From IMG/VR virus record IMGVR_UViG_2740892115_000003: DNA of 27,180 nt; one strand, given 5' to 3'. Below, piece after piece: positions 1 to 1,537 of this stretch (within the stretch, counting starts at the first letter, position 1; the number at the start of each line of letters is the position of its first letter). Position numbers and translations under genes: made by a program. Origin of the DNA: a virus (Duplodnaviria > Heunggongvirae > Uroviricota > Caudoviricetes). The notes beneath the pieces were generated by a model that was given only the letters and a program-made list of their open reading frames with translations, made no database searches and was not told where the DNA came from.

Positions 1-1005
1 TTAATCCCCCGTGGACACTGCGTGGACACTCACGCCACCTTTCAGCGGATTAAGGGCCACCGCATCCTGCAGGTAATCCGGTGCAAAATGTGCATATGCC
101 ATTGTTTGCTGAATGGTTGCGTGGCCAAGAATCTTCTGAAGCGCAATAATGTTTCCTCCGTTCATCACAAAATGACTGGCGAACGTATGCCGCAGCACAT
201 GCGCAGCCTGGCCTTTTGGCAAATCGGGCTTAACCCTTTTCAGCGCCAGGCAGAATTCCCGGTACTTCACCTCAAACAAGTTGCCTGTTTCTCTGGTTCT
301 GATCGCCTCACAAACCGCCTGTGAAATTGGCACCGTTCTCTTCCGGCCATTTTTAGTTTCAAGAAACGTTACACGGTTATGAACTATCTGTTCACCACGA
401 AGCTTACAAGCTTCACTCCAGCGCGCCCCTGTGCTTAAACACAAAAGCGCAACACGCCAGTAGTCGCCCTCCAGTGTATCGAGCAATAGCGCCACTTCCT
501 TCTGTGACAGGAACGCCATTTCTCGTGGAGATACATAAAGAATAGAAATTCCCCTTACTGGATGTTCTGCATCCCAAAGACCTATTTTTTTCAGCACGGT
601 AAACATTCCGGATAACCGATTCATGTACCTGTTAGCAGATGACGGTTTCAATCCAGCAGCTATCTTTTGAGAACGCCACGCGATAATTTTCAGCTTATCA
701 AGATCCACAGCCTGCATATCAGCGCCAAGCTCATTGATTATGTTGCACAGTTGTTTTCGGTCTTCTTCCGCCTTACGCCTGTGTTGACCGTGATACATCC
801 ACCACAACTCAAGCAAATCATTTAGCGTTCGGCGATCACGGTAGCCCTGTATATATTCCCGCTTTTCAGCGTTCGCCATGATGTAGCGTTCAGTGGCCAC
901 CGCTACCGATTTTTTGTCAAATACCTTACGCACGCGCTTTCCCTTGCGTCCGTTCGGCCTGATGTCCAGCAAATAACGACCATCTTCGAGCTTCTTAATT
1001 GACAT
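1..1005 (-). CDS. int: Tyrosine integrase (P2 Int-like site-specific recombinase)
   Basis: Minus-strand ORF with stop at 1-3 and ATG at 1005-1003 preceded by GGAGGG; C-terminal catalytic region HVLRHTFASHF...LGHATIQQTMAYAH is typical of tyrosine recombinases. The ORF-track start at 1020 is a TTG and less likely. Confidence 0.9.
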   Translation of the reverse strand: MSIKKLEDGRYLLDIRPNGRKGKRVRKVFDKKSVAVATERYIMANAEKREYIQGYRDRRTLNDLLELWWMYHGQHRRKAEEDRKQLCNIINELGADMQAVDLDKLKIIAWRSQKIAAGLKPSSANRYMNRLSGMFTVLKKIGLWDAEHPVRGISILYVSPREMAFLSQKEVALLLDTLEGDYWRVALLCLSTGARWSEACKLRGEQIVHNRVTFLETKNGRKRTVPISQAVCEAIRTRETGNLFEVKYREFCLALKRVKPDLPKGQAAHVLRHTFASHFVMNGGNIIALQKILGHATIQQTMAYAHFAPDYLQDAVALNPLKGGVSVHAVSTGD

Positions 1006-1101: not shown

Positions 1102-1440
1102 TTAGCGGGGTGATTTTTGGTTTGTTTCGGTTGAAACCTGATCGCCCTCCGAATCGAAGAAGCCATCAAGAGAGAGAGGCGGAGCAATCTGCCCCGTCGC
1201 AGCATTAGTTTGATTAAACATCACCCAATCCGAATACTTCCGAAAACGAGGATGATTCAAAATCAGGAGTAACGTTTCTCCAGGTATCATTCTTCCCAAT
1301 ATTTCATAATTTTTGAGATTGTATTGAGATACCCCTGTCACCTCCTCCATCTCTCTACGTGACAATCCCTCTGCCTCTCGAATCAGGCGAAGTTTTTCTC
1401 CAAGGCTTGATTTATGGATCATATGTGATCTAAACTCCAT
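1102..1440 (-). CDS. C: Immunity repressor, P2 C-like (HTH)
   Basis: Small minus-strand ORF divergent from cox; HTH segment LSRREMEEVTGVSQYNLKNYE and C-terminal FNQTNAATGQIAPPL resemble P2 C (FMTNQIAPESGQIAPAL). In-frame ATGs at 1440 and 1422; true start ambiguous. Confidence 0.8.
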   Translation of the reverse strand: MEFRSHMIHKSSLGEKLRLIREAEGLSRREMEEVTGVSQYNLKNYEILGRMIPGETLLLILNHPRFRKYSDWVMFNQTNAATGQIAPPLSLDGFFDSEGDQVSTETNQKSPR

Positions 1441-1537
1441 GCTATTGGGTTACATGTGATACAAAACATTCAAATAGCCAAAATAAGCCTATATAAGCCA
1501 TTTTGGGCCATTTGGACGAATTAAGGAGATTACCACA
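1441..1537. promoter_or_regulatory. Lysogeny switch region with divergent promoters (Pe-like for cox, Pc-like for C) and operator-like direct repeats
   Basis: Candidate rightward promoter TTCAAA (1469-1474), 17-nt spacer, TATAAG (1492-1497), then AAGGAG RBS (1523-1528) before the cox ATG; direct repeats TAAGCC x2 (1484-1489, 1494-1499) and GCCATTT(T)GG x2 (1498-1517). Confidence 0.4.

Follow-up and report, generated by a model that had tools for sequence, protein, structure and literature searches.

The region between the divergent C and cox genes of this phage appears to hold two separate sets of repeats, one for each of two repressors. We consider it likely that the locus is a P2-type bistable switch, in which the C repressor would act at a pair of directly repeated sites, O1 and O2, at the early promoter Pe, and Cox would act at a phased array at the leftward promoter Pc. 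A preliminary description had singled out the repeats closest to cox (TAAGCC twice and GCCATTT(T)GG twice) and taken them for the C operators. On the basis of the loci compared here, those repeats are most likely Cox boxes lying over Pc rather than C operators. The C operators are probably at positions 1416 to 1431 and 1447 to 1462, about 60 bp to the left of those repeats and partly outside the region first described. Our direct results are the protein homologies, the anatomy of the repeats and their periodicity, the half of the region that changes with the type of C, and the ranking of the promoters.

The switch locus and its genes

The window, by which we mean the whole 27,180-nucleotide stretch that was analyzed, carries int, C, and cox at its left end, in the order found in P2. 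By sequence comparison, positions 1021 to 1900 are 100% identical to Citrobacter phage Shae_phiSM, OR565851. Shae_phiSM is a member of the genus Xuanwuvirus in the Peduoviridae, with C. rodentium DBS100 as its host. phiSM is a functional phage that is spontaneously released from C. rodentium (PMC6456863). The phiSM paper does not treat the switch, and a literature search found no paper on the switches of Xuanwuvirus. Positions 1407 to 1537 are an ordinary P2-type lysis/lysogeny switch in this known phage. The same C gene and switch occur in 70 to 78 of 5,426 complete E. coli genomes (~1.3%) and in 17 IMG/VR prophages.

The int gene (1 to 1005, minus strand) encodes a tyrosine integrase, identified by Pfam Phage_integrase and Int_N and by the GenBank coding sequence of OR565851, and is the second gene of the leftward, lysogenic operon. 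The C gene (1102 to 1422, minus strand, from the GenBank start) encodes an immunity repressor of 106 amino acids. This protein matches phrog_147 and aligns from end to end with P2 C at 35% identity (E = 2e-19), and P2 C is its sole match in the PDB (2XCJ/2L49). Among sequenced phages, no other record had a C more than 60% identical to that of phiSM. On the plus strand, cox (1538 to 1825; Pfam Phage_Cox, 1.2e-22) comes first in the early operon and encodes the lytic repressor and excision directionality factor. Its product is 56% identical to P2 Cox (PDB 4LHF, E = 6e-26). The cox ribosome-binding site, AAGGAG, was read from the sequence at 1523 to 1528 on the plus strand, 9 nt before the ATG; it is nearly invariant among relatives, position 1524 being G in the P88 type. 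Downstream of cox are a 68-amino-acid ORF and a DUF4761 gene. There is no cII-like gene after cox, and the DUF4761 protein lacks a helix-turn-helix (HTH). The preliminary description had assigned the switch to the P2 type rather than the 186 type, and this assignment holds, since C is homologous to P2 C, a Cox homologue is encoded divergently, the gene order is int-C-cox, and a cII-like gene is absent.

At the left edge of the window, GTGGACACT occurs twice, at 11 to 19 and 22 to 30, 11 bp apart and overlapping the 3′ end of int. This sequence fits the P2-type Int arm-site consensus tgTGGaCa, and its position is that of the P2 P′ arm (PMC3448106). Immediately to the left of the window come the attP core and a putative Cox site. 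The OR565851 record, deposited as "circular," both begins and ends with ACAAGGAT, probably the att core, which would have been included two times because the record was cut at the prophage borders.

The longest ORF for C runs from 1102 to 1440 (112 amino acids), and with this start the region between the repressor and cox is indeed the 97 bp given in the preliminary description. GenBank, with its 106 amino acids, starts C at 1422. All C types have the methionine at 1422, and this start is also favored when C is aligned to P2 C. The upstream ATG, at 1438 to 1440, reads GTG in 13 of the 18 close relatives and has no Shine-Dalgarno sequence before it; the only Shine-Dalgarno-like motif, GGAG at 1435 to 1438 on the minus strand, is 12 nt upstream of the ATG at 1422. 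Since Met 1422 is conserved, and the upstream start is often GTG and without a Shine-Dalgarno sequence, the intergenic region is more likely to be 1423 to 1537. The switch itself reaches farther left, to 1407 within the 5′ end of C, beyond the region first described.

The predicted early promoter and the repeats that follow the C type

A strict sigma-70 scan of 1300 to 1700 found nothing. A weighted −35/−10 matrix scan, which also recovers the mapped Pe promoters of P2 and WPhi as top matches, gave TTGATT-N18-TAAACT as the top plus-strand promoter, with a score of 10.1. This predicted Pe has its −35, TTGATT, at 1407 to 1412, within the first codons of C, and its −10, TAAACT, at 1431 to 1436, and its transcript would start near 1443. 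The top-scoring promoter lies at the same position in every relative. TTGA is invariant, and the relatives read TTGACA-N18-TATCCT or TATACT. The preliminary description had placed a rightward cox promoter over the repeats near cox, made up of TTCAAA (1469 to 1474), N17, and TATAAG (1492 to 1497). There is a weak promoter-like match at that place, but it scores 5.7, versus 10.1 for the promoter at 1407 to 1436, which is both better and conserved; the weaker match has no −7 T in its −10, and relatives do not keep its −35.

The −10 of the predicted Pe is flanked by a direct repeat that is absent from the preliminary description. A 20-nt sequence at 1415 to 1434 recurs 31 bp away at 1446 to 1465, with 15 of 20 positions identical, and lag-31 identity in 1400 to 1470 has a P of 0.03 over all lags. 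We predict that the two copies contain the C operators, both given here on the plus strand. O1, GGATCATATGTGATCT, at 1416 to 1431, falls between the −35 and −10 of Pe, and the start codon of C overlaps with it. Its partner O2, GGGTTACATGTGATAC, at 1447 to 1462, is 31 bp from O1 centre to centre and occupies ~+4 to +19 of Pe. The phiSM pair alone is marginal (12 of 16 positions identical, P = 0.07), and the proven P2 operator scores similarly (P = 0.057). The case for the operators rests mainly on three independent repeat pairs found at one position.

These pairs come from a sample of 55 IMG/VR loci and three sequenced phages with close Cox relatives; a contig search with Cox gave one locus only, and IMG/VR gave the 55. 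Three types of C (phiSM, P88, and Chuche) sit on one cox backbone in these loci, the other two being 47 to 48% identical to the phiSM C. The phiSM-type pair, GGATCATATGTGATCT and GGGTTACATGTGATAC, was found at 31 bp in 18 of 18 loci, with ATGTRAT cores. In the P88 type, the pair is ATGCCATATCGGGCAT and ATGCCACATCGGGCAC (ATGCCAYATCGGGCA twice), also at 31 bp, in 21 of 21 loci (14/16 identical, P = 0.003). The Chuche type has TTTCTCATATGAGAAA and TTTCTAAGTTGAGAAA (TTTCTN5GAGAAA twice) at 24 bp in 8 of 8 loci (P = 0.01). In 47 of 47 loci, the repeat pair goes with the C type and keeps its distance from cox, although part of this agreement between the left half and the C type is simple linkage, O1 overlapping the opening codons of C. 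When the best direct repeat was searched for blind, the proven O1 and O2 of P2, GTTTAGAT twice at 22 bp, were recovered. In phiSM, the same search gave the pair at 1415 to 1434 and 1446 to 1465, 31 bp apart, and in a prophage with a P2-like C (L058) it returned GTTTAGATCT twice, 21 bp apart.

Within the phiSM type, the 18 loci differ at 10 positions only, which is too slight a variation to map constraint; none of these positions falls in O1, the −35, or the −10. Three of the 10 cluster at 1440 to 1442, close to where Pe is predicted to start, in the interval from the Pe −10 to O2. Elsewhere in the window, we found no convincing secondary C sites. Five matches with up to 3 mismatches were detected, versus 2.15 expected, and four of the five are O1 and O2 themselves.

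The predicted operators have some dyad symmetry, with 6 of 8 pairs in O1 and 5 of 8 in O2, and the Chuche-type O1, TTTCTCATATGAGAAA, has 8 of 8. We considered this symmetry as a departure from the "non-palindromic" paradigm of P2 and rejected the idea, since the P2 operator contexts score the same, 6/8 for O1 and 5/8 for O2 when the register is searched. A tentative possibility, toward which we do not lean, is that the direct-repeat half-sites here, and perhaps in P2, are a pair of 16-bp quasi-palindromes and that a single C dimer binds each of them symmetrically; the scores behind it are inflated by register searching. If true, this would ease the paradox of a symmetric P2 C dimer reading non-palindromic repeats (PMC2995052).

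The phased array upstream of cox

The repeats reported near cox are present exactly where they were said to be, with TAAGCC at 1484 to 1489 and 1494 to 1499, GCCATTTTGG at 1497 to 1506, and GCCATTTGG at 1507 to 1515. As two families of k-mers, however, they are close to chance. Dinucleotide shuffles of 1441 to 1537 contain a repeated 6-mer in 72% of cases and a repeated 7-mer in 28%; the sequence itself has four repeated 6-mers (P = 0.12) and two repeated 7-mers (P = 0.10). Both pairs are spaced exactly 10 bp, and they represent the same head-to-tail array read in two registers, TCAAATAGCC / AAAATAAGCC / TATATAAGCC / ATTTTGGGCC / (ATTTGGACGA), which covers 1470 to 1519 on the plus strand. Its units have the form (A/T-rich)RGCC and lie at 1470 to 1479, 1480 to 1489, 1490 to 1499, and 1500 to 1509, followed by a degenerate fifth at 1510 to 1519; we predict that they form a Cox-binding site. 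At a lag of 10, identity reaches 58%, whereas shuffles give 26% (z = 5.1; P = 0.003 when all lags are considered). Four consecutive RGCC-N6 units occur once in the 27-kb window, versus 0.02 expected, for a pattern that was picked after looking. The phased RGCC pattern is retained upstream of cox in 44 loci.

The preliminary description held that these repeats are C operators over the rightward promoter TTCAAA-N17-TATAAG. The repeats do exist and are direct, and direct repeats are what the C proteins of the P2 family use (PMC1904268). Against this, the recognition helices of the three C types differ (SQYNLKNYE, PYGTVTNYE, and PLNTIQKYE), and the cox-proximal 58 bp, which hold the array, are nonetheless 81 to 100% identical to the window in 29 prophages of the P88 and Chuche C types. 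The 73 bp to the left of this block have an identity of 27 to 37% in the other C types, which is the random level. The array and its TAAGCC repeats cannot set the specificity of C, because they are unchanged although the neighboring C has one of three recognition helices; the repeat pair peculiar to each C type is found elsewhere. Furthermore, the equivalent stretch of P2 is the Pc and cox-box region. We give almost no credence to the array as the operator of C. The direct repeats had also been offered as support for a P2-type mechanism, and in this respect the right class was reached from the wrong sequences.

Cox is a better candidate for the array. The P2 cox boxes, TTAAA(G/C)NC(A/C), are spaced 10 to 11 bp apart and overlap the −10 and −35 of Pc, and earlier footprints put the Cox binding region over Pc at the position of the array (PMC3936717). 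The boxes of P2 (TAAAAGGCA, TATAAGACA, and TTAAACGCA) start 51 to 32 nt upstream of cox, and the units of phiSM (AAATAGCCA, AATAAGCCT, TATAAGCCA, and TTTGGGCCA) start 66 to 36 nt upstream; TATAAGCCA is 46 nt before the phiSM cox ATG, and TATAAGACA is 41 nt before that of P2. A lag-10 peak is found at the array position in every relative with a P2-like Cox, P2 itself included (0.48), and WPhi has none (0.26). In distant Cox lineages (~50% identity), RGCA replaces RGCC in the same phase, and the Cox recognition helix differs too. The three best-matching phiSM units agree with the P2 cox-box consensus at 5 to 6 of 8 positions. We tried a scan with this consensus as a discriminator and abandoned it as too degenerate, with 114 matches per kb at 5/8. 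Since the match to the consensus is weak and nonspecific, the assignment to Cox rests on position, phasing, and protein homology. Cox must act at attP as well. Just outside the window, the stretch of 203 bp that separates the att core from the Int P′ arm has 7 matches to the box matrix, versus 2.2 expected (P = 0.005), although some of these overlap and the top-two score has a P of 0.2. A comparison of attP across relatives was uninformative, as it is 94% identical throughout.

The array could also exist without a specific phage protein, as curved A/T-tract DNA, a site for a host factor (IHF or Fis), or an element upstream of Pc, and be retained mainly through joint descent with cox. A- and T-tracts (AAAAT, ATTTT, and ATTT) do recur every 10 bp, and the weak fit to the P2 consensus speaks for such an origin as well. 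The right half could be conserved because it shares a recent ancestry with cox and not because of selection, the Cox product being 95 to 100% identical in most of the loci (L049 has 74%). However, the invariant part of each unit is its G+C end, RGCC, and not the A/T tract, which makes this explanation less likely. It also does not sit well with the distant Cox lineages, in which RGCA at the same phase accompanies a differing recognition helix, with the P2 Cox binding region over Pc at the same position (PMC3936717), or with the enrichment of box-like sequences at attP. We regard a purely structural or host-factor array as unlikely and favor binding by Cox.

The same stretch contains an imperfect inverted repeat, 1471 to 1495 with 1490 to 1514. 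The 25-nt arms are 76% complementary and include a perfect 7-nt pair, CCAAAAT/ATTTTGG, and the cox leader folds the stretch into a hairpin. CAAATAGCCAAAAT (1471 to 1484) and ATTTTGGGCCATTTG (1500 to 1514), on either side of the TAAGCC pair, could on these grounds be read as a palindromic operator in the style of 186 or lambda or as a hairpin in the cox leader. We find this very improbable. The leader fold is no better than that of shuffles (z = −0.28), and the intergenic region had no Rfam match at E ≤ 1. The left arm is not kept in the P88 and Chuche types and the right arm is, with no consistent compensating changes, and no 186-type CI is encoded.

Strict and matrix scans of the minus strand found no strong −10/−35 for Pc. 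The annotated −10 of the P2 Pc is TATAAT, inside GGCATTATAAGACA, and the positional equivalent in phiSM is TATATA or TTATAT in GCCTATATAAGCCA. We place the candidate Pc −10 there, near 1490 to 1496 on the minus strand, with low confidence; it has no canonical −7 T or −11 A.

For who binds where, for cooperativity, and for the exact position of Pc, the mechanism we favor draws on P2 and WPhi. Two face-to-face promoters would be controlled by two repressors, each with a separate set of repeats. C dimers would bind the directly repeated ~16-bp O1 and O2, which are 31 bp, or about three helical turns, apart. Occupancy of these sites would turn Pe off and keep cox and the lytic genes silent. Once Pe has fired, Cox would polymerize on the array at 1470 to 1519, one protomer per helical turn, over the leftward Pc, and this would turn off C and int. 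The Pe and Pc transcripts would overlap by ~40 nt.

C modules and comparison with known switches

The three C types have in common a C-terminal tail, GQIAP..LSLDG..EGDQVSTETNQK (~1102 to 1180), and the cox-proximal DNA, and they differ in the HTH core and the operators. This pattern points to recombination junctions in the 3′ end of C and near 1466 to 1480, with C and its operators apparently swapped as a cassette. The three C types are presumably heteroimmune. Five related prophages (L025, L027, L028, L031, and L033) have a tandem-fused C of 195 to 211 amino acids with two phrog_147 matches (about 490 to 1140 per locus), in which the first module is of the Chuche type and the second, joined to it in frame, is of the phiSM or P88 type. 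Pe of these five prophages has Chuche-type operators only. The second module of the fused C might provide immunity against a second phage type.

The C of phiSM adds an uncharacterized immunity class to the P2 C family, and the constant cox/Pc module, combined with at least three C-plus-operator modules, is a natural swap series for repressor specificity. The annotation of the phiSM switch can now include positions, open to testing, of Pe, O1, O2, and the Cox boxes; beyond annotation, this matters little. For genome scans, the lesson is that repeats beside a repressor gene need not be the operators of that repressor. In P2-type switches, the 5′ end of the repressor gene is where its operators are found, and repeats close to cox are those of Cox.

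Phage 186 has face-to-face promoters and an excisionase-type lytic repressor that acts on direct repeats one helical turn apart (PMC7498355), an arrangement like the one predicted for phiSM. The CI of 186, at ~190 amino acids, is unrelated to P2 C, uses inverted repeats, and needs CII (PMC1904268), and none of these features of CI is found in phiSM.

WPhi, of immunity class III, is closer. C half-sites flank the Pe −10 in both P2 and WPhi (PMC1904268, PMC1904263), and those of WPhi, like the predicted phiSM sites, are about three helical turns apart (34 bp, versus 31 bp in phiSM), with O1 in the promoter spacer. WPhi differs in its C, which is 38% identical, in its half-sites, the 10-bp TATTGGTGAC, and in its Cox, which is 42% identical. 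The best repeat in the WPhi switch (L063) is CCTAGAARGGAC, found twice, 20 bp apart, ~75 to 40 nt upstream of cox. This pair presumably represents WPhi-specific Cox boxes, unlike those of the P2/phiSM type.

Xuanwuviruses of the P88 type (P88_4B11 and PhiR44_2) and the Chuche type share with phiSM the cox gene, the cox-proximal 58 bp, the attP region, and the position of Pe. Their difference lies in C, at 47 to 48% identity, and in their own repeat pairs, at 31 bp in P88 and 24 bp in Chuche.

From P2, phiSM differs in the operator core, ATGTGAT in place of GTTTAGAT, and in operator spacing, 31 bp versus 22 bp. The C start is overlapped by O1 in phiSM and by the Pe −35 in P2. The box units end in GCC in phiSM and in (G/A)CA in P2, and the Pc-equivalent −10 of phiSM is not canonical. 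The likeness to P2 nevertheless extends over the whole locus. It includes the int-C-cox order, a C of ~100 amino acids with an HTH (35% identity), a Cox that is 56% identical, and a Pe −35 at the 5′ end of C. Two direct C sites, which in phiSM are predicted, flank the Pe −10 in both phages. Boxes phased at 10 bp lie 25 to 45 nt upstream of cox, where P2 has Pc, and Int arm sites, GTGGACA, overlap the 3′ end of int.
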